A stretch of 64,000 bases of DNA from an uncultured Christensenellaceae bacterium (lineage in GTDB: Bacteria > Bacillota > Clostridia > Christensenellales > UBA3700). Shown here piece by piece: positions 6,907 through 29,501 of this stretch. A program made the translations under genes and the position numbers. Each line of letters opens with the position of its first letter. Positions within the stretch are counted from its first letter, which is position 1. The stretch covers positions 47,706 through 111,705 of the forward strand of contig CAJUMY010000004.1 of the NCBI GenBank assembly GCA_910587685.1, given 5' to 3'. The notes under the pieces are model-generated. The model made no database searches, was not told the DNA's origin, and saw nothing but the letters and a program-made list of their open reading frames with translations.

Positions 6907-6937
6907 ATATGCGCAAATGGACAATGTAGTTATTTGG

Positions 6938-10802: not shown

Positions 10803-10830
10803 TGCCACAAACTACATTGTGGTAGTGCGC

Positions 10831-10859
10831 ATTATATCACAAACTTTTGTTCGTTGCAA
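10831..10859 (-). promoter_or_regulatory. strong promoter reading into module A (TTGCAA-17-TGnTATAAT)
   Basis: On the minus strand: -35 TTGCAA (10854..10859), 17-bp spacer, extended -10 TGATATAAT (10831..10839). Confidence 0.5.
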
Positions 10860-11097
10860 GCCTTTCACCGCCCATAAACGGGCGGTGAAACAAGTTTTTA
10901 TAGAAAGTTTTGTCGAAAAGTATAATCGAGCGATTATTTGTTTGAACCATTGTCTACCACTTGTTTTTTTGCATTGAATGTGATATAATGATTGTGCGAT
11001 AAACAGTAATTTAACGGAGATAGACCGATAAGGCGTAACTGTCTTATCGGTCTTTTATTCTAATAGAAATTATTTTGAGAAAATTACTTAAAAATGC

Positions 11098-11128
11098 TTG
11101 CTCGTTACGCCGCGTAATGAATTATAAT
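11098..11128 (+). promoter_or_regulatory. MerR-type promoter with 19-bp spacer and dyad operator
   Basis: -35 TTGCTC 11098..11103 and -10 TATAAT 11123..11128. The 19-bp spacer contains the palindrome TTACGC-C-GCGTAA (11105..11117). This geometry is typical of MerR-activated promoters. Confidence 0.55.
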
Positions 11129-11145
11129 ATATGCGAGGTATATTT

Positions 11146-13449: not shown

Positions 13450-13597
13450 ATTTCCTTAAATAAAATTTCAATTTAGCGTTCTAAATGTGTTGATAAAAAG
13501 TCGAGATTCCATAAGGAGTCCCGACTTTTGCTTTTACATTGATTTGTCCGCTTTAATTCTAATTTAGATTTTGTGTGTCCATTTGCGTAAACTACAT

Positions 13598-14417
13598 TAA
13601 GGGTAAGTAAATAATCATCTTCGGCTTTATGTCTTGCAGGTGCTTTCTTGTTTTTTGCCAAACGCTGTTGCACTCTCTCGAAAACATCTTCCGATACAAG
13701 CGGTGGAATAATGTTCGGTACTGTTACATCTCGGAATTTATATTCGCCCAAATACCTGCGGTTAGATAACATACGCTGAACGCCCGTGCCGTTAATCTTG
13801 CCGCCCCGATAAGAGCGGATTTTCTTTTTGTCAAGGTAGTCAACGATATACTTAATTGTATGACCGTCGGCGTACATTGTAAATATCTCTTGAAGGATAG
13901 GTGCAAAGGTTTCGTGCGGCTCGAACTTTCTTTCCGCATTTAGTTTATAGCCGAAAGTAATTTGTCCGCCGTTGTTTATGCCTTTGAGTACGTTTTCAGT
14001 CATACCACGCACAACCTTTTCGGCAAGCTCGGCAGAATAGTATTCCGCCATACCTTCCAAAACCGATTCAAGGAGTATGCCTTCCGAGCCTTCGGCAATA
14101 GCTTCTTTTGCGGATACAACTTTTACACCGTTTTTGCGGAGTAGTGCTTTGTAGTGTGCGCTGTCGTAACGGTTACGGGAAAAGCGGTCTAACTTCCAAA
14201 CTATAATGCAATCGAAAGCGTGTTTATAGCTGTCCTTAATCATTTGCTGAAATTCGGGACGGTTATCCGATTTAGCGGAAAGCGCACGGTCTATGTAAGA
14301 CTTGATAACGTCAATTCCTGCGTGTTCGGCAAATTCCATACACTCACGAAGCTGACCTTCGATAGACGCTTCCGTTTGGTTGTCTGAACTGTATCTTGCG
14401 TAAATGACTGCTCTCAT
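13598..14417 (-). pseudogene. large serine recombinase of the outer element, N-terminal half
   Basis: MRAVIYARYSSDNQTEASIEGQ... is the resolvase catalytic Ser domain. The homologous sequence ends at ...AEDDYLLTL (codon 273, 13601..13599). The ORF then runs into inner-element DNA to a stop at 13473. Confidence 0.8.
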
Positions 14418-14418
14418 T

Positions 14419-15516
14419 TTAACCTCTGTTCAATTTGTATTTTTCAGATAAAATATTGGTTGCATTTTTATGTTTGCTTAAAATAAATATATCCTTAATA
14501 TTTGATAATGTATTTGGGTCGTCTAGGTCATCTGTAGTTAAAGATAGCATGCTCGTTTGCCCTATAATTTTAGTTGTAGTTTTATCATTATCTATAACTT
14601 GTTTTATATCTTCTGTTAAAAAATAATCCTCCGCATAGAGTAAGACGATATAATTTATAACAGACAATTTTTCTTCTTCGGAAAGCTTCTTAAATTTTTT
14701 GTAAAAACTCCTATATCGAGTTTCATTATTATTGACAAAAAGAATAATTGCTGTTTTATTCTCAAGAGGAAAAATGCAAACATGTAATTCTTTTGTTTTA
14801 TATTTTGGATTATAGCAGTATATATCATTTATAATGTTACCGTCAAAATCAAGATAAAGTGTTATTTGTCCTTGATACGCAATTGGTGTAACATAATCTA
14901 ATAGTTTATAATAAATCAGATAATATCCATCATTATCATCCTTTTTTAATAACGATTTAGCTTTTCTAATAGAAGTATAATATTCTTCATAATCCATTTC
15001 TTTTATGGCTTGAATACCTTCAATAAAGTTTTCTTTACCTATGGTTTTTTCTTTAAGAACATCATACATCTTTATTTCATCCATACGTTTGCTAATGGCT
15101 TTGAGACCATTTTTTAAGGCAATTTGAGCTAAAATCTTTGAAGAAGGTTTTTCGTTATAAGCTTTTGGATTTTCGTATTCTTGAAATACAACGCTATCAC
15201 ATTCACGGCAAATGAGTCTAAATGTGCCTGCCTCATTTATACCGTTTTCAGATTTTATGTAAAACGGATATTTAACTATTGAGTTGCAAGTACAAACTTT
15301 TCCGTCCTTTTCTATATTTCTTAAACAAAACGCAGGGACAGTATGTGAGTTGCAAAAAGAAGTTTGTTCTTTGCCACAAATCAAGCAAGAAGAAGGTTTT
15401 GCACGATTTTTTGCCTCTCGCATAATGCGGCTCATAGTTTTGTTTATCTCAATCTTATCGCCGGTAAACTCACTATTCAATTTGTCACTATTTTCTTTTA
15501 AATTGAGTGCTTTCAT
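14419..15516 (-). CDS. orphan Cys-rich protein (365 aa), function unknown
   Basis: Long AT-rich ORF with N-terminal CLICG...CNSH and CRECD clusters. The stop is 1 nt from the recombinase ATG, and the gene is co-oriented with the upstream XRE gene. Confidence 0.6.
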   Translation of the reverse strand: MKALNLKENSDKLNSEFTGDKIEINKTMSRIMREAKNRAKPSSCLICGKEQTSFCNSHTVPAFCLRNIEKDGKVCTCNSIVKYPFYIKSENGINEAGTFRLICRECDSVVFQEYENPKAYNEKPSSKILAQIALKNGLKAISKRMDEIKMYDVLKEKTIGKENFIEGIQAIKEMDYEEYYTSIRKAKSLLKKDDNDGYYLIYYKLLDYVTPIAYQGQITLYLDFDGNIINDIYCYNPKYKTKELHVCIFPLENKTAIILFVNNNETRYRSFYKKFKKLSEEEKLSVINYIVLLYAEDYFLTEDIKQVIDNDKTTTKIIGQTSMLSLTTDDLDDPNTLSNIKDIFILSKHKNATNILSEKYKLNRG

Positions 15517-15583
15517 TAATCATTATAATCCTTGGTGTGTTATTTCATTTGGTTTAATTATTTCTCGTCATTAGACCAAAGCA

Positions 15584-15943
15584 TTATTCTTTTCCTTCTA
15601 AAATTTTCAATAGCGTTTCTTTCAATTTAGCATTTGCAGGAGAGGAAGGGTCGAAGCACATTTCGACAAACGCTTGCATTTGCTCGTTGTCTTGCCAAAC
15701 CTTCGGCTGAAAATCATAGAGCTTCCCTTGTGGACTATCGCACCTACCGTATATATAGTCAAGTGATACGTCGAAGTAATCCGCATACCATAAAAGAATA
15801 TTGCTCGGAACTTCCGATTGACTATTCTCATAACGGTTGACCGCAGACTGTACCATTTTGCCGTTTGCCTTTGCGATCTTTGCTTGTGATACTTTTGTGT
15901 TCTCGCGTAATGCTTTTAAGCGTTGACCTATAACTTTATTCAT
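15584..15943 (-). CDS. XRE-family helix-turn-helix regulator
   Basis: IGQRLKALRENTKVSQAKIAKANGKMVQSAVNRYENSQ is a typical HTH_XRE N-terminus. Confidence 0.8.
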   Translation of the reverse strand: MNKVIGQRLKALRENTKVSQAKIAKANGKMVQSAVNRYENSQSEVPSNILLWYADYFDVSLDYIYGRCDSPQGKLYDFQPKVWQDNEQMQAFVEMCFDPSSPANAKLKETLLKILEGKE

Positions 15944-16063
15944 TGAATCACCTCAAAAGAGAGTATAACACACTAGAAAGATAATGTCAATATAATATCT
16001 GGGTTAATTTAATCTTTTCGACAAAACTTCCCACAAATCGCAAACATTTGTTTATATAATTTA

Positions 16064-16092
16064 TTGACTTGCTACTGCCATTGTGATAAAAT
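16064..16092 (+). promoter_or_regulatory. strong promoter reading into module B (TTGACT-17-TGnTAAAAT)
   Basis: -35 TTGACT 16064..16069, 17-bp spacer ending in TGA, -10 TAAAAT 16087..16092. Confidence 0.5.
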
Positions 16093-16118
16093 TCATACTA
16101 TACGATATAAGTCGTATT

Positions 16119-16283
16119 GTACCCTTTTGAGGGTAGAGTTCTGCGGTGGGCGTTAAAGAATTTGCCCATAGGATGCAGAAGGTTTTGGGCGGTATAACCG
16201 CCTTGCCTTAGCTTACGGAAAGAGCGTAGGTTTTTTAGTTGTACGCAAAATTCGTATGCCGTGATAGGCTTTTATAAGTGTAC
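16119..16283 (+). repeat. ~165-bp conserved module, copy B
   Basis: See copy A (10637..10802). Same order relative to its promoter, mini-ORF, oriT and mob gene. Confidence 0.8.
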
Positions 16284-16318
16284 AATTTTTTAGCTATAAC
16301 GACGTTCAATATCAACAT

Positions 16319-16357
16319 TGAATCCGTGCGGAGCGTAATGCCGAGCGGATTTTTTGT
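16319..16357 (+). terminator. possible terminator/attenuator downstream of module B
   Basis: AATCCG...CGGATT stem (6 bp plus a weak inner stem) followed by TTTTTT. The loop is rather large. Confidence 0.35.
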
Positions 16358-16424
16358 CGTTGTATTTTTAGCTATCTACCACCTTTTGCGTGGACGAGAT
16401 AAATATATTTTGGAGGTAAACACA

Positions 16425-16445
16425 ATGATTTTCAAACCGCCATAA
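16425..16445 (+). CDS. conserved 6-codon mini-ORF MIFKPP* with RBS
   Basis: GGAGGTAA RBS 6 nt upstream. Homologous to 10306..10326. Confidence 0.3.
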   Translation: MIFKPP

Positions 16446-16494
16446 TACGGCAAGCAAACGGAAAGCAACTGCATAGGAAACAACTTATCGCCGA

Positions 16495-16522
16495 GCATAA
16501 GTGTAGCTCACTACACTTAGCA
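16495..16522 (-). other. oriT-like site of the outer element
   Basis: The minus strand reads AAGTGTAGTGAGCTACACTT, an inverted repeat homologous to AAGTATAGTGTGCTATAC of copy A. It lies ~100 nt upstream of the mob start. Confidence 0.45.
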
Positions 16523-16615
16523 AGCTAAGTTGCGTTCGCCCTGCGGGGCTTTCGACCGCACGACAAAACAGAGATTTTAAGGAGGATTTTAAGTATAAGT
16601 TATTTAGTATGCCAT

Positions 16616-17605
16616 ATGGAAAAGTATAAACGGCAAGACGTTACGCCCGTTGAAAAAGAGAACGAAAGAGATGAGAACTATCAAGGCACTAATCCGCAAA
16701 TAGACAGCGAGAGAACAAACGGAAACTATCACTTGATATATCCACAGGGCAAGTACATAGAGATGATTAACAAGCGGCTTGATACTCTTACACTCAAAAG
16801 GAAAATTCGCTCGGACGCTATCCTAATGAACTCGTTTGTAATCGGATCGGACGGAGAGTTTTTCAAGGGTATGCGAGCTTGGGAACAACACGCTTTCTTT
16901 GAAGATTGCACCCGCTTCTTTATGGAAAAGTACGGCTATGAAAATATGCTGTCCGCGGTAGTCCACGTGGACGAAACAACACCGCACCTGCACTTAAATT
17001 TCGTGCCTATCAATGACGGACGATTGAGTAGCAAAAGCCTATTCGACAGACAGAAACTTGCGGAACTGCAAACCGAGCTATGGGAACAAGTCGGAAAGAA
17101 ATACGGTTTACAACGTGGTAAGGAAAACAGTCAGGCAACGCATATTACAGCCGCAGAACATAAGGCAAAAGTCATTGTGCAATCGGCGGAACAAAAGCGA
17201 GATGAGATTGACAGACAGACCGAGCAAAAGCAAGACGAACTTGACGGACTTACCCAAACGATTGAAGCGGTAACGCAAGCGATAGGCAAGCCTATACCAA
17301 AAAAGAAGAAACAAGCTGCGGACGAAATCACGGCTTTAAGAGCAAGGAACGCCGTACTCGAAGAAGAAGTCAAGCGAGCAAACAAAGACCGTACAGACCT
17401 ATTCAGAGAGTACACAAGAGAGAAACGACGAGCGGACGAATACGAAAAGACCGTACAAGAAGTTGCGGAAATCAAGGCGGTACTGCCCGAAGGTTACGAC
17501 CAACTGTTACAGGACGTGCAGTATGAAAAAGCCGAAAGATACGAAAGAGAACGGCAACGAAATCTCGCCCGTATTCACGGACGATACAGCGACCACCAAA
17601 TGTAA
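16616..17605 (+). CDS. MobV-family relaxase (second copy)
   Basis: HVDETTPHLHLNFVP motif. The N-terminal ~190 aa are clearly homologous to 9117..10127 (VTPVEKENERDENY..., RSDAILMNSFVIGSDGEFF...). Confidence 0.85.
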   Translation: MEKYKRQDVTPVEKENERDENYQGTNPQIDSERTNGNYHLIYPQGKYIEMINKRLDTLTLKRKIRSDAILMNSFVIGSDGEFFKGMRAWEQHAFFEDCTRFFMEKYGYENMLSAVVHVDETTPHLHLNFVPINDGRLSSKSLFDRQKLAELQTELWEQVGKKYGLQRGKENSQATHITAAEHKAKVIVQSAEQKRDEIDRQTEQKQDELDGLTQTIEAVTQAIGKPIPKKKKQAADEITALRARNAVLEEEVKRANKDRTDLFREYTREKRRADEYEKTVQEVAEIKAVLPEGYDQLLQDVQYEKAERYERERQRNLARIHGRYSDHQM

Positions 17606-17645
17606 ACTTAATAACCGCTTATAAGGAGGAAAACGCCAACAGTTA

Positions 17646-17834
17646 ATGTCAAGACGGAAAAAGAACACCACAGGGATACCCGATTTTGAAATCGATTCCC
17701 TTGCAAGAGCATTATTGCCCGCTATACAAGCCTACTTTGAAACCGAAGAAGGACAAAGAGAGTTTGCGGCGTGGCAAGCCGAAAGGCAACAAAAACAACT
17801 GAATAATAAATTGAATAATAAAGAATCCCGTTAA
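17646..17834 (+). CDS. small hypothetical protein (62 aa) of the mobilisation module
   Basis: ORF directly downstream of mob, preceded by an AGGAGGA RBS region and followed by a strong terminator. Confidence 0.45.
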   Translation: MSRRKKNTTGIPDFEIDSLARALLPAIQAYFETEEGQREFAAWQAERQQKQLNNKLNNKESR

Positions 17835-17964
17835 ATCGTATAGGGATAGCCGTTGAAAAAGACGGATAAGGAAAACCGCTATATAGTGAAGCGGTATATA
17901 AATGAAAGATACATAAAAACAATGTTAAAAGGTTGCGCCGAATATTAGAAACCTATATAACGGC

Positions 17965-17998
17965 AAGAGGCAGAGCTAAAAGCTCTGCCTCTTTTTAT
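17965..17998 (+). terminator. intrinsic terminator
   Basis: AAGAGGCAGAGCT-AAA-AGCTCTGCCTCTT followed by TTTAT. Confidence 0.7.
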
Positions 17999-18004
17999 AT
18001 ATGG

Positions 18005-19095
18005 GTGAATTATACTATCAAGTGCAACAGGTGAGAATAAAAAAAGAGTTCATATAAATCAATGTGTTATAATTAGTTTGCAACAACAAAAAACACAGGA
18101 GAAATATATGAACTACACCCATCTTACCATAGAAGAACGCGCTTGTCTACGAAAATATTACGTTGAAGGAAAAAGTTACAGAGAAATAGCACGGTTGCTC
18201 GGGAGGAACGTAAGCACAATCTCGCGCGAGATTGCTCGCAATTACACTCACCGTTACGCCATAAATACATACTACCCGCACACAGCGCAAAAGTAATATC
18301 TGCTTCGCCGCTCATTCTGTCACATGGGAATGTTTTGGAATAAAGAAGTAATTGCTTACATAAATGAAAAGTTACAGTTAACGTGGTCACCGGAACAAAT
18401 AGCGAGTACGCCGTGTCATTTAAAGATGCCTACATTTAAAACGATATATCGTTGGATATATGAAAAGTATTTGGCAGGCGGGAACGTTAAAGTATTACGG
18501 AAGAAAGGCAAAACGAGGAAACGGCTTGGAAACGGCGGAAGATTTACAATGGGGAAAAGTATACGAAAACGAGATAAAAGCGTATATAAACGCAAAGAAT
18601 TCGGACATTGGGAAGCAGATACGGTAGTATCCGGACGAGGAAAGACGAAAGCCTGTTTTGCAACGCTTGCGGAAAGAAAGACAAGATTTTATATAGCAAT
18701 TAAGATACCGAACAGAAACGGTGAAACAATGGCGAGAGCAATAATACAAGCATTGGGCAAGCTGCCGAAAGGAGCAGTTAAGACGATAACTTGTGACAGA
18801 GGCAGCGAATTTGCTAATTGGCGACAGGTTGAAAAAGAACTTAATTGTGATATGTATTTTGCAGACCCGTATTGTGCTTGGCGGAAAGGAACGAATGAGA
18901 ACCTGAACGGTTTATTGAGAGAATTTTATCCCAAGGGCAGAAATCTTTCTCGCGTTTCTAAAAAAACGCTCGAAAAAAATCTGGCGTTAATTAACGCCAG
19001 ACCGAAAAAGGTTTTGGGCTTTAAAAAACCCGTTTATTTATTTAACTTTTTTTTAACTAAGTGTTGCACTTAGTTTGACAATTCACTATATGAGT
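18005..19095 (+). mobile_element. IS30-family insertion sequence
   Basis: Imperfect terminal inverted repeats GTGAATTATACTATCAAGTGCAACA (left) and TGTTGCACTTAGTTTGACAATTCAC (right). TATATG occurs in both flanks but is not flush with the IR ends. Contains an IS30 transposase. Confidence 0.75.
18108..19073 (+). pseudogene. IS30-family transposase with an in-frame TAA stop
   Basis: The N-terminal HTH part (MNYTHLTIEERACLRKYY...TAQK) and the DDE part (...WSPEQIAS...HWEADTV...DRGSEF...NENLNGLLREF) are in the same frame. They are separated only by TAA at 18294..18296. Confidence 0.8.
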
Positions 19096-19279: not shown

Positions 19280-19308
19280 TTGCAATTTTTGCAATTGTTT
19301 GCTACAAT
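19280..19308 (+). promoter_or_regulatory. promoter candidate of the AT-rich cargo operon (TTGCAA-17-TACAAT)
   Basis: -35 TTGCAA 19280..19285, 17-bp spacer, -10 TACAAT 19303..19308. TTGCAA occurs three times in 35 bp. Confidence 0.4.
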
Positions 19309-19349
19309 ATTTATTGTCGAAAAATAAAATATTGTGTCGATAAAATTTA

Positions 19350-19772
19350 ATGAGGGCTGTCATTGTGATAAATTGTCTTTTAGCCGCTTTAGAGTGGAGT
19401 GATGTTGCTGATGCTGTGTATGTATTAGTGGGTGCTATTTTAGGGATGGCATCGTCCTTGCTTATTGGCTGGGGAGCCAAACGATATGGAATACGCCGAT
19501 TAAAAAAGATGTTACGAGTGGAATTAAATGGCATCAAGCAAGAGGTAGAGGACAATATTGCAGACAGTGGCGAAATTATTCTTCCTTCACCGATTTGGAA
19601 TTTTATTGGACAAACATCTACATTATTGGATTTAAAAGTAAGCGACTATAAAAAGGTAGTAGCGATCCATGGCGCAATTATTGCGTTTAAGGAAACAGAA
19701 AGCAATAGTGCCACTCGTAGTGAAGCCAATAGACGTAATTTTATCAAGGAAATAAACGAGAATACATTTTGA
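19350..19772 (+). CDS. small membrane-anchored protein (140 aa), unknown function
   Basis: One clear N-terminal TM helix (AVYVLVGAILGMASSLLIGWGA) followed by a soluble charged domain. Lies 17 nt upstream of the NTPase gene. Confidence 0.5.
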   Translation: MRAVIVINCLLAALEWSDVADAVYVLVGAILGMASSLLIGWGAKRYGIRRLKKMLRVELNGIKQEVEDNIADSGEIILPSPIWNFIGQTSTLLDLKVSDYKKVVAIHGAIIAFKETESNSATRSEANRRNFIKEINENTF

Positions 19773-19789
19773 TTGAATAGGTAAAACAT

Positions 19790-22700
19790 ATGAGTACGAA
19801 GCATATTAGGATAATTAAAAAACTTGATGATATTCTTGGTTCTCTTCTAGAGAAAACCAAAATCCTGTGTAGCAATGTAAATCTATTTGGTGGAAGTATA
19901 TCTAATGCCTCTCTATATGGTATTTATATTCCGATGCCAACAAATTTCAAGCTTAATGTAGCGATTAAAAATCACGAAATTGAATGTATCGAGGAAGAGA
20001 GAGTATATCGGGATGATACGCTAAAATATTCTAAAGGTATAAATGAGAACATAAAAAAGCTTGGAGGTCAAGTATCAAGCATTTTAAGAGATGGGTTGGC
20101 TAATCATGTGAAAAATGGAGATGAATATAATTTTCCGGATCCCCATGATAGACCCCTGATTATGAGTGCACCTTGGGCAGATGGCTATAAAAAGAACTAT
20201 TGGACGCTGAATGTTTTTGATATAGTATCTATTTACGATCGAGTAGCGTTATTGGGGAAGCCCGGGACAGGTAAAAGTACGGCGTTGAAGTATCTGGCTT
20301 CTACGCTGATTGAAAATATTCTAACGAACGAACAGATGACAAGTGTTGATGTCTTGTCTGATAAACTTTTTGCTGAGAATTATATCCCCATTTATATTGA
20401 ATTCAGAAAATTGGCTAACTGGTGGAATGAAGAGGTTGAGGCAACAAGAATAGGAAATGAAGAGAGAATTAATCTTGGTCTAATTACGCGGTATCTGTAT
20501 AGTCAAGCGGGAATAAGTTATATCAATGGAACGAGATTGCCGAGCCAGAATAAATATATTTTTATGTTCGATGGGATAGACGAAATCCCTCAGGGCATAA
20601 ATAATATTGATCATGCCTTTTCTCAGAGTGCGCTAAATTATCTCGTGGGTGAAATTGCCAGGACATATGGGGGCGAGAATAAAGAGGTTAAAATTTTATT
20701 CTCTTCAAGAATAGACGAGTTCAATAGCTATTCGTTCAACAATTTTGAAGTTGCAGAGCTGGTTTCGATGAATGAATATATAGCGATTGATTTAATTGAT
20801 AGAATAAAAACATTATGCAATGATGAATGTACGGATCCTAGGGGGTTATTGGCAGAATTAAAGGAAAAAGGATTTGGCGATGACATCGTTTTCAATCCGA
20901 TGCTGTTGTCTCTATTATCATTTGTTGCTATAGATAAAGGTAAAGGGAAATTGCCGGACAATAAATGCGAGGTATTGCGAGAGAGTATAGAATTATTACT
21001 TAAAAGATGGGCGACAAAGGGTGAAAATAAACCGGCTTTCTTCAGTCAATTTGAACAGGAGGGCAATTTATACGGACAAGCTATCTTTAAGGAGTTAGAG
21101 AAATTTGCCTACGAGTCGGAAGAAAATGGTCAAATTAGCATTGCGGTTCTATATAGTTTTATGCGTAGAGAACAAAGTAACGCAAATTCAATCATGGACT
21201 ATTTATCAAAAACGGCAGGGTTGATTGTCGAAGATACAGAGTTATCGGCTAAATTTGCACACAAAAGTTTCAGATCGTATTTAGCTGCGTCATATATTTG
21301 TAATCAAGCCAATGTCGTTGAATTGTTGCTGAAAGAAGTTGATAAAAGCATAGCTATTGGTGGAATTAATGAAACATTGACGCTAGCTGTGGAGATATTA
21401 TTAGATGATAATTCTCAAGGTTACACGTTAGAGTCGTTTGTTTCGCAGAGTCTGGATAAGTATAGCGATTATGATTTATGCGTTTGGTTTATTGGTAAGA
21501 TTGTAAGCGGCAGAGAGGGGAAATTTTATAAAGAAAGGATTATTCACAATACATATATTACAACGAAATTATTAGAAAAATTGGGGTCAGTATTTCATGA
21601 ATCCAATCAAATACCACCGAATAAGCGTATAGAGTGTGGATATTTTCTTGGTCAACTCGGTGATCAGCGAGAAGGTATCGGAAACACCGAAGCTAATTTA
21701 TCGGACATCGTTTGGTGCCCTGTAAATAAGTGCGAATTAGAATTTGGTCTTACGAAGGTCGCACGTGATATGGTGTCAAAAACTCCGTGGGGTGCCGATA
21801 TTGATTTTTCAAGGGAATGCACGAAAAAGGGCGAAACCATCAAAATGGATATTGATGAATTTGAAATATCCAAATATCCCGTTACTGTGGCGCAATTTAC
21901 AGCATTTTTACAAGACAATGACGGATATAAAAATAAAAGGTGGTATACATGGTCAGGGGCAAGTTTAGACTATTATAACGGTGTTGTGATTAAGACAATT
22001 CCAAAAGAAAATGCCACTGATTACTATTTCGATTTTTATTTGCCCAAATTATTTCGAATACCAAATCTGCCTATCACTCACGTCCCGTTCTTTGTTGCCA
22101 TAGCATTTTGTAAGTGGTTAACAGAAAAAATGAATGACGGAACAGAGGTGCGGTTGCCTACTGAAATGGAGTGGGAGACCGCTGTGAAAATGCGGGGAGG
22201 TCAAGTATATGAATGGGGCGATGATGGTGTCAATTCAGATTGGCAAGATCAATTTGTTACCAATAATTGTAACTGCCTGGGCACCAAAATATATCGAGTG
22301 TGTCCAGTGGGGTCATTCAATGATACTAAGGAGAGGACGCCGGTTGATTTAACAGGAAATGTTTGGGAATGGACATCGTCCTACTTTACTGACACACTTG
22401 GAATAGTAAGTGTAAACACAACTATTAACACAATCGAAAATAAACATCTGACAACGGACAACGCCAAAAACTTACTCATTACCGCTAGAGGGGGGTCGCT
22501 GCATAATGGTTTGAATGGCTTGCGCGTTTCATTCCGCGGAAGAGATCCGATTCTTGCCGATGCTGCCGATCGTCATTCATTTAGGGTCGTACGCACAAAA
22601 CCGCGAACGATAAGTTATTATGAAGAGAGAAAACTAGCGAAGGGAAATAATAAGAATGGAGTGGCAGAAGGTTACGGGCTTCCTGTAAATCGAGGTGACA

Positions 22701-22960
22701 AAATCACTATAATGTATAGGATTAGTCGGAATAAAGAACTTATACAGCCGCAATCCGATTTTACATTTGTTTTGGGAGATGGTATAGTTCATCAGGCTTT
22801 GGAAAAAGAGATCATGAACAATCACAGAAGGGCATGCAATTTTACAAAGCATTATTTAGGTAAGGATCTTTTTAATGCAAGTGGGTTTAAAAATATTATT
22901 GCGCCCAATGATGAATTGGAAGTGTTCATACACATAAAAGACACTATGGAAATCAATTAA
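19790..22960 (+). CDS. NACHT/STAND P-loop NTPase fused to FGE-sulfatase (SUMF1)-like and FKBP-like C-terminal domains
   Basis: Walker A LLGKPGTGKST (aa 154-164) and NACHT-like Walker B IFMFDGIDEIP. FGE-sulfatase motifs YPVTVAQFTAFL, LTGNVWEWTSS and ARGGS (aa ~640-937). The last ~95 aa follow the FKBP pattern (GDKITIMY / FTFVLGDGIV / IIAPNDELEVFIHI). Confidence 0.8.
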   Translation: MSTKHIRIIKKLDDILGSLLEKTKILCSNVNLFGGSISNASLYGIYIPMPTNFKLNVAIKNHEIECIEEERVYRDDTLKYSKGINENIKKLGGQVSSILRDGLANHVKNGDEYNFPDPHDRPLIMSAPWADGYKKNYWTLNVFDIVSIYDRVALLGKPGTGKSTALKYLASTLIENILTNEQMTSVDVLSDKLFAENYIPIYIEFRKLANWWNEEVEATRIGNEERINLGLITRYLYSQAGISYINGTRLPSQNKYIFMFDGIDEIPQGINNIDHAFSQSALNYLVGEIARTYGGENKEVKILFSSRIDEFNSYSFNNFEVAELVSMNEYIAIDLIDRIKTLCNDECTDPRGLLAELKEKGFGDDIVFNPMLLSLLSFVAIDKGKGKLPDNKCEVLRESIELLLKRWATKGENKPAFFSQFEQEGNLYGQAIFKELEKFAYESEENGQISIAVLYSFMRREQSNANSIMDYLSKTAGLIVEDTELSAKFAHKSFRSYLAASYICNQANVVELLLKEVDKSIAIGGINETLTLAVEILLDDNSQGYTLESFVSQSLDKYSDYDLCVWFIGKIVSGREGKFYKERIIHNTYITTKLLEKLGSVFHESNQIPPNKRIECGYFLGQLGDQREGIGNTEANLSDIVWCPVNKCELEFGLTKVARDMVSKTPWGADIDFSRECTKKGETIKMDIDEFEISKYPVTVAQFTAFLQDNDGYKNKRWYTWSGASLDYYNGVVIKTIPKENATDYYFDFYLPKLFRIPNLPITHVPFFVAIAFCKWLTEKMNDGTEVRLPTEMEWETAVKMRGGQVYEWGDDGVNSDWQDQFVTNNCNCLGTKIYRVCPVGSFNDTKERTPVDLTGNVWEWTSSYFTDTLGIVSVNTTINTIENKHLTTDNAKNLLITARGGSLHNGLNGLRVSFRGRDPILADAADRHSFRVVRTKPRTISYYEERKLAKGNNKNGVAEGYGLPVNRGDKITIMYRISRNKELIQPQSDFTFVLGDGIVHQALEKEIMNNHRRACNFTKHYLGKDLFNASGFKNIIAPNDELEVFIHIKDTMEIN

Positions 22961-22973
22961 GGAGATATATATT

Positions 22974-23717
22974 ATGGCTAAAAAATTAGTAGGTAAAGTT
23001 GCAATTGTTACAGGATCTTCTTCGGGCATCGGCGAGGGTATAGCTAAAAAATTTGCCGAAGAAGGTGCAAACGTCGTGGTTGTTTCTAACCGCGCAGTCG
23101 AAAATGGGAAAGCGGTATGTGAACAACTTTGCAAAATGGGAAGCGATGCGATCTATTGCCAAATGGATGTTTCTAACCCTGACGACATAGAGCGTTTATT
23201 TAGCACAGTTATGAAAAAATACGGACATTTGGACATCTTGGTGAATAATGCTGGGGGTCAAGTCGCAAGTCCGTTCGGCAAGACGACCTTTGAAATGCTG
23301 GACCAAGATATGCGCGTGAATGCTTTCGGTCCATTCGTTTTATCGCAGAAAGCCGCCGAATGTATGGGCGAAAAGGGATGGATAATCAACACCTCAAGTT
23401 TTCGCTCAATAGATCCTCGTCCGCCCATCCTTGGATACTGTGCGTCAAAAGCTGCATTGAACAATATCACACAAGCGCTGGCATTGCAATTGGCACCGCG
23501 TATTTTTGTAAATGCGGTTTTGCCCGGATTTGTGGAGACCGAAAATTATAAAAAGTTTGATGCTGCGTTGAAAGAAAGTTGGGTACAACAAACACCCATC
23601 AAGAGGTTTGTAACGCCGGAAGAACTTGCTGAAGTTTATTTGTTGTTGGCAACAACAGAAATCTTAACGGGTACATTAATCGTTGCAGATGGTGGTTTTT
23701 CCTTGCTTGGGAGATAA
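22974..23717 (+). CDS. short-chain dehydrogenase/reductase (classical SDR)
   Basis: TGSSSGIGEGIA, NNAG and S...YCASK motifs. The AAGGAG RBS overlaps the stop of the upstream gene. Confidence 0.85.
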   Translation: MAKKLVGKVAIVTGSSSGIGEGIAKKFAEEGANVVVVSNRAVENGKAVCEQLCKMGSDAIYCQMDVSNPDDIERLFSTVMKKYGHLDILVNNAGGQVASPFGKTTFEMLDQDMRVNAFGPFVLSQKAAECMGEKGWIINTSSFRSIDPRPPILGYCASKAALNNITQALALQLAPRIFVNAVLPGFVETENYKKFDAALKESWVQQTPIKRFVTPEELAEVYLLLATTEILTGTLIVADGGFSLLGR

Positions 23718-23725
23718 TCGGTTTT

Positions 23726-24607
23726 ATGTTTAAAAATGCTCCGAAAAGAATCGATGTTCATGCACACGCGTTGATATCTAAAGAGATAAGCATACCACGT
23801 TTAGATGGTACCGTTTTGCATGACTATAAAGAATTGTGTAATCTTTACGATAACAACGGGATTGCTATGGGTATCATAATGCCCATAGTGAGCCCGGAGT
23901 TTCAATCTTTTTTGGTAACAAATGAGGATGCGTGGTTTATGTCTAGCAATTCTGCAAACCGATTAAAATGGTGTTGCAATATCGATCCTCGCATGGAGTG
24001 TTTTTCAGACAAGACAGACTTTTCCAGAATGTTACGGTTCTACAAAAGCAAGGGCGCTGTCGGGGTTGGAGAGCTTATGGCCAATTACTCATTGGACGAT
24101 CCTATTATGGACAATTTATTGTTCCATTGTGCAGAGTGCGATATGCCCGTAACAATTCATTGGGCAGAGGTGCTTAATAGAGGGTATGGCATTTATGGCG
24201 GTGGAAATATGGTTTTACTTGAGAGAACCTTAAAAAAATATCCCAAATTAACCATAATAGGGCATTCGGTTCCTTTCTGGGATTTATTATATGAAAAAGC
24301 TGGGGGGAGACGTCTTGTCCAACTTATGAGAGAGTGTCCCAATTTATATTGCGACACTTCGGCAAATAGTGGTTATAATGCAGCGAGTAAAAATACTCCA
24401 TATTTTTATGAGTTTTTAAACGAATTTCAGGATAGAATCTTGTTCGGATTGGACATTTGTTATATTGGCGAAAATCTTTACAAAAAAACTATTAAGTTTT
24501 ATGATGACGCATTAAATAACAATTTTATTACCAGAGAAATTTATGATAAAATTAATTACATAAATGCCGTTAAGCTATATAAATTGAATATACACGAGGA
24601 AAGATAA
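23726..24607 (+). CDS. amidohydrolase-fold metal-dependent hydrolase/decarboxylase family protein
   Basis: RIDVHAHAL N-terminal metal-binding motif and a TIM-barrel-sized 293 aa. The family-level call is from pattern only. Confidence 0.6.
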   Translation: MFKNAPKRIDVHAHALISKEISIPRLDGTVLHDYKELCNLYDNNGIAMGIIMPIVSPEFQSFLVTNEDAWFMSSNSANRLKWCCNIDPRMECFSDKTDFSRMLRFYKSKGAVGVGELMANYSLDDPIMDNLLFHCAECDMPVTIHWAEVLNRGYGIYGGGNMVLLERTLKKYPKLTIIGHSVPFWDLLYEKAGGRRLVQLMRECPNLYCDTSANSGYNAASKNTPYFYEFLNEFQDRILFGLDICYIGENLYKKTIKFYDDALNNNFITREIYDKINYINAVKLYKLNIHEER

Positions 24608-25905
24608 TGGATTCATATAAAATATTAATTATCGGATTGGGACCTGTTGGATTAGCTACGGCAATCGGATTTGCGTATGCGGGGCATGACGTTGTTTGCT
24701 ATGATATTGATAAAGAACGTATTAACTCATTGAAAAATGGCGCGACTCCATTTTTTGAGCAGAATTTACAATATTATTTAGATAAACATGGAGACAAACT
24801 TCATTTCACAGATAATTTAGAGGAAGCATTTAGCGAGACTAACGTTTTCTTTATATGTGTTGGTACACCTCTTGGGCAAAATAATAGTGCAGACATGGCA
24901 GCTTTTTGGAATGCAATAAATGATATTGTAAAAAACGCAAAATGTGATTCAATAATTGTTATAAAATCCACGGTCCCTATTGGTACAAATAAGAAAGTTG
25001 TTCACTACATAGAGACATTGCATTTAAAACATGAATTTGGCGTTGTATCCAATCCCGAATTTTTGGCTCAGGGCACCTCGGTAGAAGATACTATTAAAGC
25101 TACACGTATTATTATAGGTTGTAATGCTCCATATTTGCGTGATTTAATGTTAGACATCTATGATAAATTTGATGGCGAGAAGATAGTTACTACTCCTGAG
25201 AGTGCAGAATTAATTAAATATGAAGCGAATTGCTATTTAGCTATGCGTGTTTCATTTGTTAATGATTTGGCACATACTTGTGATTTGGTTGGTGCTGATG
25301 TCGAGTCGGTCTTAAAAGGTGTTTCAATGGATCCGAGAATTGGTACACATTATTTCTCACCGGGATTAGGTTACGGCGGATCATGTTTTCCTAAAGACAC
25401 AATTTGTTTTCATAACCAAATTCAAGCTGAATATGGTTATGAGTTGGAACTAATTGAAGCAACTATAGACGTAAATAAAAGGCATCCTTTACGTTTGTGC
25501 AGAAAAATAATGGCAAATTGTGGTGGTGATTTAATAAATAAAAAAATAAGTATATTAGGATTATCGTTTAAGAAAGATACAGACGATGTAAGGGATTCTT
25601 TAGCTGTTAATATAGTTTCATATCTTGTATCAAACGGTGCAAATGTTACTGTATGGGATCCCGAAGCTATGAGAAATGCAAAGAAAATATTTGCGGATAA
25701 AGTAACTTATGCTAATTCGCTTAACGAAGCAATCGATGCAAGTGATACGATTTTTATTGCTACTGATTGGGATGACATAGTTAATATCCCTTTTGATAAG
25801 TTAAAAAATAAAAATGTATATGATGGCAGGAATTGTTATTTGAATCGTCAGGAAGAGATAAAGTTCAACTATTATTATGTCGGTGGTTCAATCAGTGATA
25901 AATAA
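24607..25905 (+). CDS. UDP-glucose/GDP-mannose (nucleotide-sugar) 6-dehydrogenase family
   Basis: N-terminal Rossmann motif ILIIGLGPVGLATAIGFA and catalytic GGSCFPKD. 432 aa. Confidence 0.85.
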   Translation: MDSYKILIIGLGPVGLATAIGFAYAGHDVVCYDIDKERINSLKNGATPFFEQNLQYYLDKHGDKLHFTDNLEEAFSETNVFFICVGTPLGQNNSADMAAFWNAINDIVKNAKCDSIIVIKSTVPIGTNKKVVHYIETLHLKHEFGVVSNPEFLAQGTSVEDTIKATRIIIGCNAPYLRDLMLDIYDKFDGEKIVTTPESAELIKYEANCYLAMRVSFVNDLAHTCDLVGADVESVLKGVSMDPRIGTHYFSPGLGYGGSCFPKDTICFHNQIQAEYGYELELIEATIDVNKRHPLRLCRKIMANCGGDLINKKISILGLSFKKDTDDVRDSLAVNIVSYLVSNGANVTVWDPEAMRNAKKIFADKVTYANSLNEAIDASDTIFIATDWDDIVNIPFDKLKNKNVYDGRNCYLNRQEEIKFNYYYVGGSISDK

Positions 25906-27040
25906 AGATATTGCCAAAAAAATTCGTGTTGTTGTCGTTGGTGGAATAAGAACACATTACATAAAAATTAATGCTATCCAAAAAGAATACGCAAAACTTC
26001 CTCTTGAGTTGCAAAACCAATTTGAGGTTATTTATGTGAATGTTGGACAGCATTATGATTATGCTCTAACTTGTCATATTGAGGCGTTAGGTGTTCATTT
26101 TGATTATACTTTACAGCATGAATCTAAAGCCTCGTATGATATTTTATCATCAATATTTAAACAGTTCGGTAATTTATTGGATGACATATCCCAAAGCGGA
26201 AAAATTGACTATGTTGTTGTTATGGGTGATGTTGCTACAACAGCGGTATCCGCTATGGTTGCAATTGTTAAGGCGATTAAAGTAGTCCATATAGAAGGCG
26301 GTGTACGGGTTAAAAGGGGCAATGGGAATGAGGAATTTTATAGGACTATTGCCGATCATTGCTCAACACTTTGTTTTGCAAGCACGCATGAGGATTACAC
26401 CAATTTGATTAAAGAGGCTTTTAGTACTCGTGCCTATTTCTCTGGAGATATTATGTATGATTTTGTAAAAGATTACTTTAAAAACAAATCTTTTACAGAG
26501 TTTAACTACATCATAGGTAACAAGCTCAAAAGCTATAAAATAACTAATAACTCGTATATTTTATCATCCTTGCATCATGTCGAGAATATAGAGGTTGACT
26601 TATTGCAGAATTTATTTAACGCTTTTTTCCAGAGTCAATTCGATAGTATTTTTATAGCTCATCCTAGAATTAAAAAGTTGATTGCTGACAACCGAATTGA
26701 TACACAAAAGACCCTCGTTGTTGACGCTATACCATACCAAGAAAATCTGAAAGCAATTAAGAGTAGTGTTTTTTGCTTTACCGATTCTGGGGGTATACAA
26801 AGAGAGGCGTACTACTTTAATAAGCGCTGCATTGTATGTAGCGATTTAACCGTTTGGGATTCGATTATCAAAACGGGAAGCAACATCACAATTGGCAAAA
26901 CCATGGAAGAGGTAAACCGTGGGCTTCGGTGGGCAGAAGAGAATGCTAATGCCAATTATGAATATGATGGTTGCTTTGGAGATGGACAGGCAGTTAAAAC
27001 TATTTTTGGGAAGATTTTAGAACATTATGAAACTATCTGA
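25877..27040 (+). CDS. UDP-N-acetylglucosamine 2-epimerase-like (Epimerase_2 family)
   Basis: The pattern VVVMGDVATTAVSAMVA...VVHIEGGVR...FTDSGGIQREAYYF mirrors WecB motifs. The start is uncertain (29-nt overlap with the upstream gene). Confidence 0.6.
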   Translation: MSVVQSVINKDIAKKIRVVVVGGIRTHYIKINAIQKEYAKLPLELQNQFEVIYVNVGQHYDYALTCHIEALGVHFDYTLQHESKASYDILSSIFKQFGNLLDDISQSGKIDYVVVMGDVATTAVSAMVAIVKAIKVVHIEGGVRVKRGNGNEEFYRTIADHCSTLCFASTHEDYTNLIKEAFSTRAYFSGDIMYDFVKDYFKNKSFTEFNYIIGNKLKSYKITNNSYILSSLHHVENIEVDLLQNLFNAFFQSQFDSIFIAHPRIKKLIADNRIDTQKTLVVDAIPYQENLKAIKSSVFCFTDSGGIQREAYYFNKRCIVCSDLTVWDSIIKTGSNITIGKTMEEVNRGLRWAEENANANYEYDGCFGDGQAVKTIFGKILEHYETI

Positions 27041-27914
27041 TTTTATTTGTTGTGATTTGGAGATTGAGCAAGATTGTGATTTCGATGCACTAATAAAAAT
27101 AGACGATCGGTTTGATGGTCGCGCTTTAACATTTGTAGAAAATGAAAAATATATTGATAAGGTTATAGATAGTAAAAGCATCGTTGGTATAATCATAGCA
27201 AAAGAGCTAAAAGGTAAAATAAAAAACAAACAATTAGGTATTGCCTATTCTTCTGTACCAAAGGCGTCGCTTATACGTATCAATAATATGATGCTCCCTC
27301 ATTTTAATGAAACACAGATTGGTAATAGCTGTAAAATATCTCCAAGCGCAAACATTAGTCCTGATGGAGTCGTAATTGGAGATAATGTTGTTATCGAAGA
27401 TAATGTAACTATTTATTCGGGTACCGTTATTGGATCAAATTGCATTATAGGTAGTCATAGCGTTATTGGAAGTGATTGTTACGAGAGATGCTTAGATGAA
27501 AATGGCAATCATGTGATTGCCACGCATAAAGGTGGCGTTATTATCAGAGATAATACTATAATTGAACAAAGAGTAATTATTGATAAGGCCTTGTTTAATT
27601 GGGATAATACCGAAATTGGTTGTAAATGTTTTGTGGGTCGCGATGCTTGCATCGCCCATGGTTGCAAATTATTTGAAAATGTTTACATTTACCATAGAGC
27701 ATTTTTATGCGGCAATGTTATTGTGGAAAGAAATAGTAAAATTGGGATAGGAGCTATTGTTGCTAACAGAGTTCATATTGGAGAAAATGCAGACATTAAG
27801 CTAGGTAGTGTTGTAACTAAAAATGTTGAGAATAATTCGGCAGTGTCGGGCAATTTTGCCATTCCGCACTCTGTCTTGATTGAAACGATAAAAAAATTAG
27901 CAAAGAGCCAATGA
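27027..27914 (+). CDS. LpxD-like left-handed beta-helix acyl/acetyltransferase
   Basis: N-terminal LpxD-like domain (ALTFVENEKYIDKV...) followed by hexapeptide repeats (IGDNVVIEDNVTIYSGTVIGSNCIIGSHSVIG). Confidence 0.7.
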   Translation: MKLSDFICCDLEIEQDCDFDALIKIDDRFDGRALTFVENEKYIDKVIDSKSIVGIIIAKELKGKIKNKQLGIAYSSVPKASLIRINNMMLPHFNETQIGNSCKISPSANISPDGVVIGDNVVIEDNVTIYSGTVIGSNCIIGSHSVIGSDCYERCLDENGNHVIATHKGGVIIRDNTIIEQRVIIDKALFNWDNTEIGCKCFVGRDACIAHGCKLFENVYIYHRAFLCGNVIVERNSKIGIGAIVANRVHIGENADIKLGSVVTKNVENNSAVSGNFAIPHSVLIETIKKLAKSQ

Positions 27915-28007
27915 AATGTTTTACAGAATATGTGTGGATACCTATCCTCCTGTGATAACTGTATTACATCAATATTAATAGAAATTTGTTGCTATTAAAT
28001 CCAAGAG

Positions 28008-28046
28008 AAAACCGAGAGTTGAAAAACTCCCGGTTTTATTTTTTTA
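28008..28046 (+). terminator. intrinsic terminator ending the cargo operon
   Basis: AACCGAGAG-TTGAAAAA-CTCCCGGTT (one mismatch) followed by TTATTTTTTT. Confidence 0.55.
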
Positions 28047-28167: not shown

Positions 28168-28244
28168 TGGTGCACCCTAAGGGATTCGAACCCCTAACCT
28201 TTCGGTCCGTAGCCGAATGCTCTATCCAGTTGAGCTAAGAGTGC
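28168..28244 (-). tRNA. tRNA-Arg (anticodon ACG)
   Basis: The reverse complement GCACUCUUAGCUCAACUGGAUAGAGCAUUCGGCUACGGACCGAAAGGUUAGGGGUUCGAAUCCCUUAGGGUGCACCA folds as a cloverleaf. Anticodon loop CUACGGA, encoded CCA. Confidence 0.9.
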
Positions 28245-28620: not shown

Positions 28621-29501
28621 ATGAAAAAAATAGTTACGTTTGCAGTTATTCTTGTCCTCGCGTTGACGCTTTCCGCATGTAGCGGCGAAGCGATAACGCC
28701 GAACGAGCCGTACGATATGAACGACGGGATCGAAATGGGAGAATATAAAGAAACCGCATTCACTGTCGCGTCATACAATATTAAGGGCGGCGACGCGACG
28801 CTTGGATCCGTAAAAGGCATAAATGAAAATATCGTAAACGTCGGCGCGGATATAGCGGGACTTCAGGAGGTTGACCACCTTTCGGAGAGAAGCGGCAAAA
28901 AAGACTTCTTACAGATATCAGAGAAGGCGTAATGAATAACGTATCGTATTTCCCAATGATGTTAAAAGGATTCGGAGAGACTTACGGCATAGCGTCCGTG
29001 TCGAAAACGCCTATTTCAAGATCTCACTCATTTAAGCTGCCTTATCCGTATAAATACGAAAGAAGCGACGTTGAGAAGAGAATAATCATGCGTTCGCTCG
29101 TTAAGATAGACGGCGTTCAGATAGCCTTTTACAATACGCATCTTTCGTATGAGAACGTGAAAATGCCGAACGGGCAAAGTCTTAGGCAAGCTCAAATCGA
29201 GTATATTCTGGAGCTGCTCGAGAGCGACCCGTGTCCGTATAAAATAGTTGTCGGAGATTTTAACTCGCTGAGTTTTGAAGAATTCGACGTTTTGCTAAAG
29301 GAAGGATATAATATAGTAAATAATAACGATAACAGGCTCGATACGTACAGAGGAGACGACGCGGAATTTTTAGCTATAGATAACGTCGTATATTCGGAGT
29401 CTTTGGAACTTATAGAGTCGGGGAAGAACGACAGCGACTGCTCCGATCACAATATGATTTACGCTACGTTTAAGACGGTCATGCGAGCAGAAAACATATA
29501 G
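28621..29501 (+). pseudogene. endonuclease/exonuclease/phosphatase (EEP) family lipoprotein, frameshifted
   Basis: Lipoprotein signal MKKIVTFAVILVLALTLSAC. EEP motifs are split over two frames: SYNIKG and GLQEV in ORF1, GDFNS and CSDHN in ORF2. ORF1's TAA overlaps ORF2's ATG at 28930..28934. Confidence 0.65.

Follow-up and report, generated by a model that had tools for sequence, protein, structure and literature searches.

Animal and plant immune receptors have ancestors or analogues in bacterial NACHT and STAND proteins, and the NLR-like proteins described from bacteria act either by themselves or together with nucleases, proteases, TIR domains or pore-formers. Small molecules enter bacterial immunity through metabolite-depleting or small-molecule-based defence systems such as Thoeris, CBASS and viperins, in which a sensor is tied to small-molecule chemistry. 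The described class closest to the system treated here, STAND NTPases joined to an FGE-sulfatase (FGS) domain, was recognized as a class of conflict systems from sequence analysis (Kaur et al. 2021, PMC8195603 section 7), and a study of bacterial NACHT (bNACHT) proteins named the FGS type an 'antigen-receptor type' sensor and reported that bNACHT genes are seldom found in operons and that such operons are poorly conserved (Kibby et al., bioRxiv 10.1101/2022.07.19.500537). FGE-like sensors are among the listed defence STANDs (PMC13581612) and are targets of diversity-generating retroelements (DGRs) (Dore et al. 2024, PMC10907252). None of these four papers mentions epimerases, UDP-sugars or hexapeptide transferases. 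The searchable literature, outside which most subscription-journal papers lie, contains no report of a STAND or NACHT protein coupled to nucleotide-sugar enzymes, nor of nucleotide-sugar chemistry in metabolite-depleting or small-molecule-based defence systems. We analyzed a 64,000-nt stretch of contig CAJUMY010000004.1 from an uncultured Clostridia bacterium (the window; coordinates are positions in it, and identities are given relative to its proteins unless stated otherwise), in which an 8.8-kb system of seven genes encodes a small membrane protein, a NACHT-FGE-FKBP NTPase and five nucleotide-sugar enzymes. The NTPase class is already known from computation; we did not find its obligate coupling to a membrane protein and a pathway of nucleotide-sugar enzymes in the searchable literature. 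Judged from gene order and homology, the seven genes almost certainly form one conserved, horizontally mobile functional unit.

We inspected every lineage with an available contig in which the NTPase shared at least 27% full-length identity with that of the window. The resulting ten lineages (the window, L007, L010, L012, L015, L016, L017, L018, L020, and L149) span NTPase identities of 27–77%. A membrane protein gene upstream and enzyme genes downstream of the NTPase gene were present in 10/10 lineages, and all six non-window lineages with at least 5 kb of contig downstream encoded an oxidoreductase, an Epimerase_2 protein, and a left-handed beta-helix (LbH) acyltransferase. The full set was retained in order in L007 (NTPase 77% identical) and L010 (68%), both with a NusG paralogue upstream, and all five enzymes were found in changed order in L018 (36%). 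L012 (37%) lacked the dehydrogenase, and L017 (43%) both the dehydrogenase and the amidohydrolase, while the contigs of L015 (45%), L016 (42%), and L020 (36%) end after the first one or two enzyme genes. L149, a Clostridia metagenome-assembled genome (MAG) found by searching from the acyltransferase side, encodes a 948-aa NTPase that is alignable end to end at 27–33% identity. It carries an aldo-keto reductase (AKR) in place of the short-chain dehydrogenase/reductase (SDR), has an extra small hexapeptide transferase and lacks the amidohydrolase. Its remaining enzymes are 68–77% identical to those of the window (acyltransferase 69%, epimerase 76%, dehydrogenase 77%), beside an NTPase only 33% identical, a pattern of module exchange.

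The comparison showed an invariant core consisting of the membrane protein, the NACHT-FGE(-FKBP) NTPase, an oxidoreductase (SDR or AKR), a UDP-HexNAc 2-epimerase, and an LpxD-like acyltransferase, with the UDP-sugar 6-dehydrogenase and the metal amidohydrolase as frequent accessories. A first reading of the window from its letters alone (the sequence-only reading) had proposed that the NTPase and the nucleotide-sugar cassette form one unit, and offered as its alternative that two unrelated cargo modules had been fused by chance in this element. The components do differ in identity to their respective homologues, and the block adjoins an IS30 remnant, both of which would suit a fusion. However, the same combination, including the co-occurrence of the membrane protein and the enzymes with NTPase homologues, is kept in ten lineages that reside on differing mobile elements in DNA of 26–40% GC and reach down to 27–33% NTPase identity. 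The linkage persists through reordering (L018), loss of accessories (L012, L017), and replacement of the SDR by an AKR together with fission of the FKBP domain (L149). Because it outlasts rearrangement, non-orthologous replacement, domain fission, and module exchange, we regard chance fusion as refuted by the comparative data, with a probability close to nil.

The NTPase family is rare, with 12 clusters at 90% identity among 5.8 billion sequences. No close family members were found in GTDB representative genomes (remote STAND-FGE relatives only, best 26%), in JGI metagenome contigs (at most 24–31% identity), in IMG/VR viral contigs (FGE-domain matches only), or in PLSDB plasmids (at most 26% for the protein and no match for the DNA).

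Within the window, the seven open reading frames (ORFs) lie on the + strand at 19350–19772, 19790–22960, 22974–23717, 23726–24607, 24607–25905, 25877–27040, and 27027–27914, with successive junctions of +17, +13, +8, −1, −29, and −14 nt. These coordinates and gaps reproduce those of the sequence-only reading exactly, and several of its further observations were borne out. The stop codon of the NTPase gene overlaps the ribosome-binding site of the SDR gene (TAAGGAG). The proposed terminator at 28008–28046 (+ strand; AAAACCGAGAGTTGAAAAACTCCCGGTTTTATTTTTTT) is a clean hairpin followed by T8 that folds at −15.1 kcal/mol in RNAfold, and it was not picked up by our pattern scanner. The scan placed no terminator-like site between the operon genes, the NTPase/SDR junction (22960/22974) singled out by that reading included. 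The impression of an AT-richer block with different codon usage was likewise sound: the block is compositionally foreign, with 36.7% GC vs 44.8% in the rest of the window, TTA supplying 39% vs 5% and CTC 3% vs 43% of leucine codons, and with AAA at 74% vs 34% and GAT at 75% vs 47%. The promoter candidate fared less clearly. The 276-nt gap before the first gene is the sole intergenic space big enough for a promoter and does hold a promoter-like site at 19280–19308 (+ strand; TTGCAA-17-TACAAT with a TG-extended −10), so the position fits, but its 9/12 match is not statistically distinctive, as such sites are not enriched in this AT-rich DNA (53 found, 43.8 ± 5.8 expected). A promoter there is plausible by position only. 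Tight or overlapping gaps, the overlap of stop codon and ribosome-binding site, and one terminator are features of a single operon.

The first gene (19350–19772, + strand) encodes a conserved single-pass membrane protein of 140 aa, or 135 aa if translation begins, as is probable, at GTG 19365 with its GAGG ribosome-binding site. A transmembrane helix at about aa 22–43 precedes a basic segment and a cytoplasmic domain of helical character, and the protein has no match in Pfam, NCBIfam, or PADLOC. Homologous or iso-architectural single-pass proteins are encoded directly 5' of the NTPase gene, often overlapping it, in all ten lineages, and the L149 version matches those of L018 and L020 at E 1e-14.

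The second gene (19790–22960, + strand, as are the domain coordinates below) encodes the STAND NTPase of 1056 aa, which comprises an N-terminal domain, a NACHT module, a helical spacer, an FGE/C-type-lectin domain, and an FKBP-like domain. The NACHT module (aa ~141–510, 20210–21319) scores below threshold in Pfam (18.9 bits vs a cut-off of 26.7). We nevertheless assign it to NACHT because Walker A (GKPGTGKST, aa 156–164, nt 20255–20281, with K162 as the Walker A lysine) and Walker B (FMFDGIDE, aa 258–265, nt 20561–20584) are invariant across 10 homologues, because the homologues P0008 and P0009 have precomputed matches to the NACHT model, and because Foldseek matches of the AlphaFold2 (AF2) model (predicted local distance difference test (pLDDT) 71) point to NLRs. 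The top 50 PDB matches were all NLRC4, NLRP3, NOD2, NAIP, or other NLRPs, with NLRC4, NLRP3, and NOD2 at the top (best E-value 1.5e-11). The module is predicted to adopt the fold of animal NLRs, with a nucleotide-binding domain (NBD), helical domain, and winged-helix domain. An NCBIfam 'EruA' match covered the P-loop only (E 1.6e-5, 23 bits vs a cut-off of 1000) and was dropped.

Conservation of the NTPase across clades is highest among the large domains in the FGE domain (40%), lower in the NBD (34%), and lowest in the N-terminal domain (23%; aa 1–110, 19790–20119), which has a conserved IYIPMPTN motif. Residues 1–150 match no Pfam, NCBIfam, or PDB profile. The N-terminal domain is predicted as an alpha/beta unit, not a helix-turn-helix (HTH), in the AF2 model; the model of this domain alone (pLDDT 47.6) was unusable and left out of the fold search. 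The FGE-sulfatase domain (aa ~631–940, 21680–22609), of sensor type and C-type-lectin fold, lies C-terminal to the NTPase module, matches PF03781 at aa 685–935 (E 1.5e-30), and has ~70 invariant residues among homologues. A catalytic FGE or EgtB role was rejected: NCBIfam scores for EgtB, OvoA, and SenA are far under cut-off, and the Cys pair of FGE catalysis is missing from the RGGS segment. All 20 PDB profile matches of the FKBP-like domain (aa ~960–1056, 22667–22957) are FKBP peptidyl-prolyl isomerases, the best being a SlyD/FKBP12 chimera (E 0.002). The domain is a gene of its own in L149 (126 aa) and a separate FKBP_C protein in the out-group L026 (PF00254, 2.5e-9).

By sequence, the window NTPase is a member of the known clade of NACHT-FGS conflict systems. 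Among 1.84 billion representatives, a profile search returned 1,602 proteins at E ≤ 1e-30. About 100 relatives match from the N-terminal domain through the FGE domain at E < 1e-100, many with added N-terminal domains, which among those checked include TIR_2, a CHAT protease, a PNP_UDP_1 phosphorylase, and the effector-associated domain (EAD) EAD8. A 25% identical relative, P0011 (metallophosphatase-NACHT-FGE), is followed by bAvd and a reverse transcriptase, that is, a DGR. It is the sole relative with such a neighbour; no reverse transcriptase or bAvd was found near the locus in any of the ten lineages, the window included. In the P0011 locus (L021:10001-18150), bAvd and three reverse-transcriptase ORFs follow, with a BrnT/BrnA toxin-antitoxin pair and an IS110 element upstream, and this DGR probably diversifies a STAND sensor. 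The out-group L026 (26%) encodes a STAND-FGE protein and a separate FKBP without sugar enzymes, so the enzyme link is specific to the subfamily of the window NTPase. In this Oscillospiraceae MAG (L026:1169-6478), the STAND-FGE gene is apparently interrupted (ORFs 1169–3022 and 3523–4206), with a DDE transposase upstream and a stand-alone FKBP_C gene and then a convergent serpin gene after the split STAND-FGE.

The window NTPase shares with bNACHT proteins a NACHT NTPase with intact Walker motifs, an animal-NLR-like structure, and an FGS-type C-terminal region. It differs in its strongly conserved operon of 5–8 genes, its FKBP-like end, and the lack of a recognisable N-terminal effector; bNACHT proteins are antiphage proteins, which the window NTPase resembles in sequence and predicted structure. 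With the STAND-FGS conflict systems it has in common a STAND module followed by FGS (PF03781) in one polypeptide, but it lacks both a fused EAD or effector and a DGR, its FGS domain is conserved where theirs is hypervariable, and its hosts are Firmicutes instead of multicellular cyanobacteria or actinobacteria. The partners of the window NTPase, nucleotide-sugar enzymes and a membrane protein, are not mentioned in those papers. A blastp search for an adaptor or EAD common to the NTPase N-terminus and the operon partners gave nothing below E 0.02. With Thoeris, CBASS, and viperins the system would share a sensor tied to small-molecule chemistry and, as is often the case there, a membrane effector, but it has no cyclase, TIR, SMODS, or radical-SAM component.

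The five enzyme genes, all on the + strand, begin with the core oxidoreductase, a classical SDR of the FabG/glucose-1-dehydrogenase type (22974–23717), which is the most conserved component of the system (93% identity in L007, 84% in L010) and has intact TGSSSGIG (NAD site) and NNAG motifs and an S141-Y155-K159 triad. The accessory metal hydrolase of the Amidohydro_2 family (23726–24607; Pfam E 5.7e-11) has invariant metal ligands (D10, H12, H14, H145, H180, and D243), and the accessory TuaD/WecC-like UDP-sugar 6-dehydrogenase (24607–25905) has the catalytic Cys motif GGSCFPKD. The core non-hydrolysing UDP-HexNAc 2-epimerase (Epimerase_2; 25877–27040, with 25895 as a possible alternative start) carries HIEGG.R and DSGGIQ motifs, and its best PDB matches are an archaeal UDP-GlcNAc 2-epimerase and WbpI-type UDP-GlcNAc3NAcA 2-epimerases. 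The last core enzyme, an LbH acyltransferase of LpxD architecture (27027–27914), consists of an N-terminal UDP-binding-like domain and hexapeptide repeats and aligns with LpxD, N-terminal domain included. With their catalytic motifs intact, the SDR, dehydrogenase, epimerase, and amidohydrolase look active. The family and domain calls of the sequence-only reading (NACHT, FGE-sulfatase, FKBP, SDR, Amidohydro_2, UDPG_MGDP_dh, Epimerase_2, and hexapeptide) hold, NACHT by way of motifs and structure, and so does its judgement that the block differs from an ordinary capsule or O-antigen locus. Genes for glycosyltransferases, initiating transferases, flippases, polymerases, exporters, and LytR-type ligases are all missing within ~10 kb in the window, L007, L010, L012, L017, L018, and L149, whereas a Staphylococcus equorum capsule locus has the full set.

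That capsule locus (L151) is complete and contains a 37% identical acyltransferase homologue together with an epimerase and a dehydrogenase. The cassette shares with this UDP-ManNAc(A) branch of capsule and teichuronic acid synthesis (cap5/8 O-P-H-like) three genes whose local order is the same, for an Epimerase_2 protein, a 6-dehydrogenase, and an LbH acyltransferase of 295 aa. The capsule locus also has Wzz, CpsB, glycosyltransferases, Bac_transf, and LytR, none of which occurs in the window system, and the latter adds the SDR or AKR, the amidohydrolase, the NTPase, and the membrane protein. Its gene content suggests that the cassette is a recruited UDP-ManNAc(A) branch of capsule type that has shed its export and polymerisation genes. 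The UDP-ManNAc3NAcA pathway (WbpA/B/E/D/I) resembles it in WbpI-type epimerase relatives, a WbpA/WecC-like dehydrogenase, and an LbH-transferase-like gene, but the window system has no Gfo/Idh/MocA 3-dehydrogenase, and a DegT-type aminotransferase is absent from every locus. The early lipid A steps (LpxA/C/D) have in common an acyltransferase that aligns with LpxD, and deacetylation followed by re-acylation would be plausible here if the amidohydrolase acts like LpxC; however, LpxA, LpxB, LpxC, and LpxK are absent, the host is Gram-positive, and LpxD models score only 94–96 bits on the acyltransferase vs cut-offs of 207–242. All operon enzymes missed the curated NCBIfam equivalog cut-offs. The missing Lpx genes, the lack of an aminotransferase, and the failed equivalog cut-offs rule out both the lipid A and the WbpABEDI pathways.

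The carrier of the operon is an integrative mobilizable element: it has a recombinase and a relaxase without conjugation genes, is foreign in composition, and varies among strains. Its backbone (13473–19073, both strands) comprises, in order, a truncated serine recombinase (13473–14417, − strand), a 365-aa protein of unknown family, an HTH protein (15584–15943, − strand), a MobV relaxase (16616–17605, + strand), and a split IS30-type transposase (18078–19073, + strand), followed by the operon. The element lies between queF and tRNA-Arg(ACG) (28168–28244, − strand); the latter is directly downstream of the operon and is probably a chromosomal flank of the element. The sequence-only reading had placed the operon right after an IS30 copy and a recombinase/MobV module. 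These elements are there, but the IS30 transposase is split into two ORFs and the recombinase is truncated by a nested element. The transposase consists of an HTH_38 ORF and a separate rve ORF, with the same split in all related contigs and no convincing terminal inverted repeats, and is probably a decayed copy; an rve fragment beside the L017 system is unrelated to it. An insertion of 6.7 kb (6904–13596) has split the 511-aa serine recombinase into an N-terminal part at 13473–14417 and a C-terminal part of 228 aa at 6186–6872, the latter 100% identical to L001. The inserted DNA is a second integrative mobilizable element, which contains genes for a serine recombinase (6938–8569), a MobV relaxase (9117–10127), and MerR and an ABC transporter (11131–13449), and it apparently targeted the recombinase gene of the first element.

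The NTPase is accessory in the host species because it occurs on 19 contigs vs 100–290 for core proteins. In other lineages the system has serine recombinases, a tyrosine integrase, or a resolvase as neighbours, and the element that carries it encodes a recombinase or integrase in every case. In L010, an Old/GajA/AriA-like ATPase gene lies downstream of the system. A sister element in the same species (L003:216-6084) has other cargo between its recombinase and HTH genes, namely an Avs2-like SMEK_N protein of 851 aa, two small ORFs, and a radical-SAM/SPASM protein that weakly matches a viperin model, and this slot looks like a variable defence-cargo site. In two different hosts, system-bearing elements adjoin a TRAM/tRNA(U5)-methyltransferase gene (L012:4199-8204 and L149:1-777), which hints at a shared integration target of the associated serine recombinases. 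The NusG paralogue lies ahead of the system in two lineages (L008:224-784, L010:5079-9543), and a 1295-aa protein with a zinc ribbon and leucine-rich repeats is encoded between the NusG and membrane-protein genes in L010 and L011.

We consider it probable, by a modest measure, that the unit defends against phages or other invaders and travels as cargo of the integrative mobilizable element. The defence or conflict label given by the sequence-only reading draws support from relatives with TIR, CHAT, PNPase, EAD8, or a DGR, from mobile carriage, and from Old/GajA- and Avs2-like neighbours, but not from known models. As to mechanism, we hypothesize that the NTPase guards a metabolite made by its own operon, a preference that we hold only tentatively and that is rather unlikely to be right as it stands. 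Starting from UDP-GlcNAc, the enzymes would carry out a 2-epimerisation, a 6-oxidation and a deacetylation (both optional), and an acyl transfer like that of LpxD. The result would be a UDP-sugar that is private to the system and not exported, probably of UDP-ManNAc(A) type and acylated at N or O. Because no locus has a transferase or exporter, this product would have to act inside the cell. The lectin-fold/FKBP sensor end of the NTPase would read the metabolite, infection would disturb its level and thereby cause the NACHT module to oligomerise, and the translationally coupled membrane protein, as executioner or anchor, would stop the infected cell. A ligand of this kind would fit an FGE domain that is conserved (40%), unlike fast-evolving antigen sensors, the lack of an adaptor domain common to the NTPase and the enzymes by which the latter could be recruited as effectors, and the predicted constitutive co-transcription of sensor and enzymes. 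The broader proposition, an NLR-like receptor with its own UDP-sugar pathway in which either the lectin-fold domain monitors the product or the pathway is a weapon that cuts wall-precursor supply, is possible but doubtful, and the joint statement of conserved unit, defence, and metabolite guard we judge to fall slightly short of an even call.

Several observations weigh against the metabolite guard and, in part, against defence as such. Enzyme content varies among lineages, which implies lineage-specific products and undercuts the ligand model, and a near-identical enzyme set serves NTPases that are 33% identical. The SDR belongs to a generic FabG/GDH type, and for the amidohydrolase there is no characterised relative (no solved relative by sequence, and only weak ACMSD-type matches in the profile search). 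The N-terminal domain of the NTPase may itself be a direct effector. The promoter and co-transcription are predictions only. All instances may stem from one ancestral operon, and the ten lineages therefore do not count as separate origins. Signs of a defence-island setting are anecdotal and come from two loci and one sister element. A PADLOC-DB v2 model was matched by none of the seven proteins at E ≤ 0.01, and the NusG paralogue, which lies 5' of the system in two lineages, is typically seen with long biosynthetic operons, not with defence systems.

The main rival turns the relation between sensor and enzymes around: the activated NTPase would switch on or scaffold the cassette as its effector arm and the infected cell would arrest, either by irreversible drain of UDP-GlcNAc (precursor of peptidoglycan and teichoic acid) or by a toxic amphiphilic acyl-UDP-sugar. 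The metabolite-degrading N-termini of NTPase relatives (TIR_2, PNP_UDP_1) would offer a parallel in NAD+ or nucleotide depletion, and the window subfamily, which has no recognisable effector domain, could have found its effector in enzymes that have intact catalytic motifs, start from an essential precursor, and end in an acyltransferase of LpxD architecture. Yet these enzymes are predicted to be co-transcribed with the sensor, with no shared adaptor domain or protease to gate them, and if constitutively active they would drain the pool continuously; a plain drain would need fewer than three to five steps, and the conserved membrane protein is already a typical executioner candidate. We therefore consider an effector arm unlikely. 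The modified UDP-sugar might instead be passed to host transferases and alter phage receptors by changing teichoic acid, teichuronic acid, or capsule decoration, with the NTPase and membrane protein as a separate or guarding abortive-infection module. The closest outside homologues of the epimerase, dehydrogenase, and acyltransferase do lie in the complete S. equorum capsule locus, the dehydrogenase is TuaD-like, and the NusG paralogue upstream in two lineages recalls polysaccharide operons. Against such remodelling, no glycosyl- or initiating transferase, flippase, polymerase, or LytR-type ligase was found within 10 kb in any of seven loci, which come from different hosts. Hosts so different could not be relied on to supply a mobile element with compatible transferases, and a strict NTPase linkage down to 27% identity is unexpected for two independent modules; it is decidedly improbable.

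Alternatively, the system may not be immune at all and may make a specialised sugar-derived metabolite or signal, with the STAND NTPase as its assembly factor or as a regulator that senses sugar. Sugar-responsive STAND regulators include MalT and GutR, and a highly conserved FGE domain of lectin fold beside sugar enzymes, the NusG paralogue in two lineages, and the absence of a PADLOC match would all be in keeping with such a role. We nonetheless regard it as improbable: effectors of death or immunity and DGRs occur in the nearest relatives, and the system is rare, patchy, accessory within species, and found on mobile elements. A transcription-regulator role of the NTPase in particular was rejected, as no HTH or other DNA-binding domain was detected by Pfam, NCBIfam, or the AF2 model, in which the N-terminal domain is alpha/beta.

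Elsewhere in the window, a tmRNA gene (tag AKNNNQMAFAA) lies at 449–798, and a queuosine precursor operon (3174–6068; PTPS, QueE-like radical SAM, GTP cyclohydrolase I, QueC, and QueF) ends at the left edge of the mobile element. At 28621–29501, a lipoprotein-like ORF (103 aa) abuts a 189-aa ORF with a weak endonuclease/exonuclease/phosphatase match, and a frameshift appears to have split a single gene into these two. An Rfam SpF59/ldcC RNA match (38398–38449; 44 bits, gathering score 37) is located 5' of a class-V aminotransferase/arginine-decarboxylase-like gene.

Were the system not immune, it would be an unrecognised conserved cluster making an unknown UDP-sugar in gut and environmental Firmicutes. 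If the link between NTPase and enzymes is functional, sugar-nucleotide chemistry would join the signalling or effector repertoire of bacterial immunity, and the FGE/C-type-lectin 'antigen receptor' domains of bacterial STANDs would gain their first candidate small-molecule ligand. Should either the guard or the weapon reading be true, a dedicated sugar-nucleotide pathway would be integral to a bacterial NLR system and would represent a new class of immune signal or effector, a conceptual parallel with the sensing of sugar nucleotides and muropeptides by animals.

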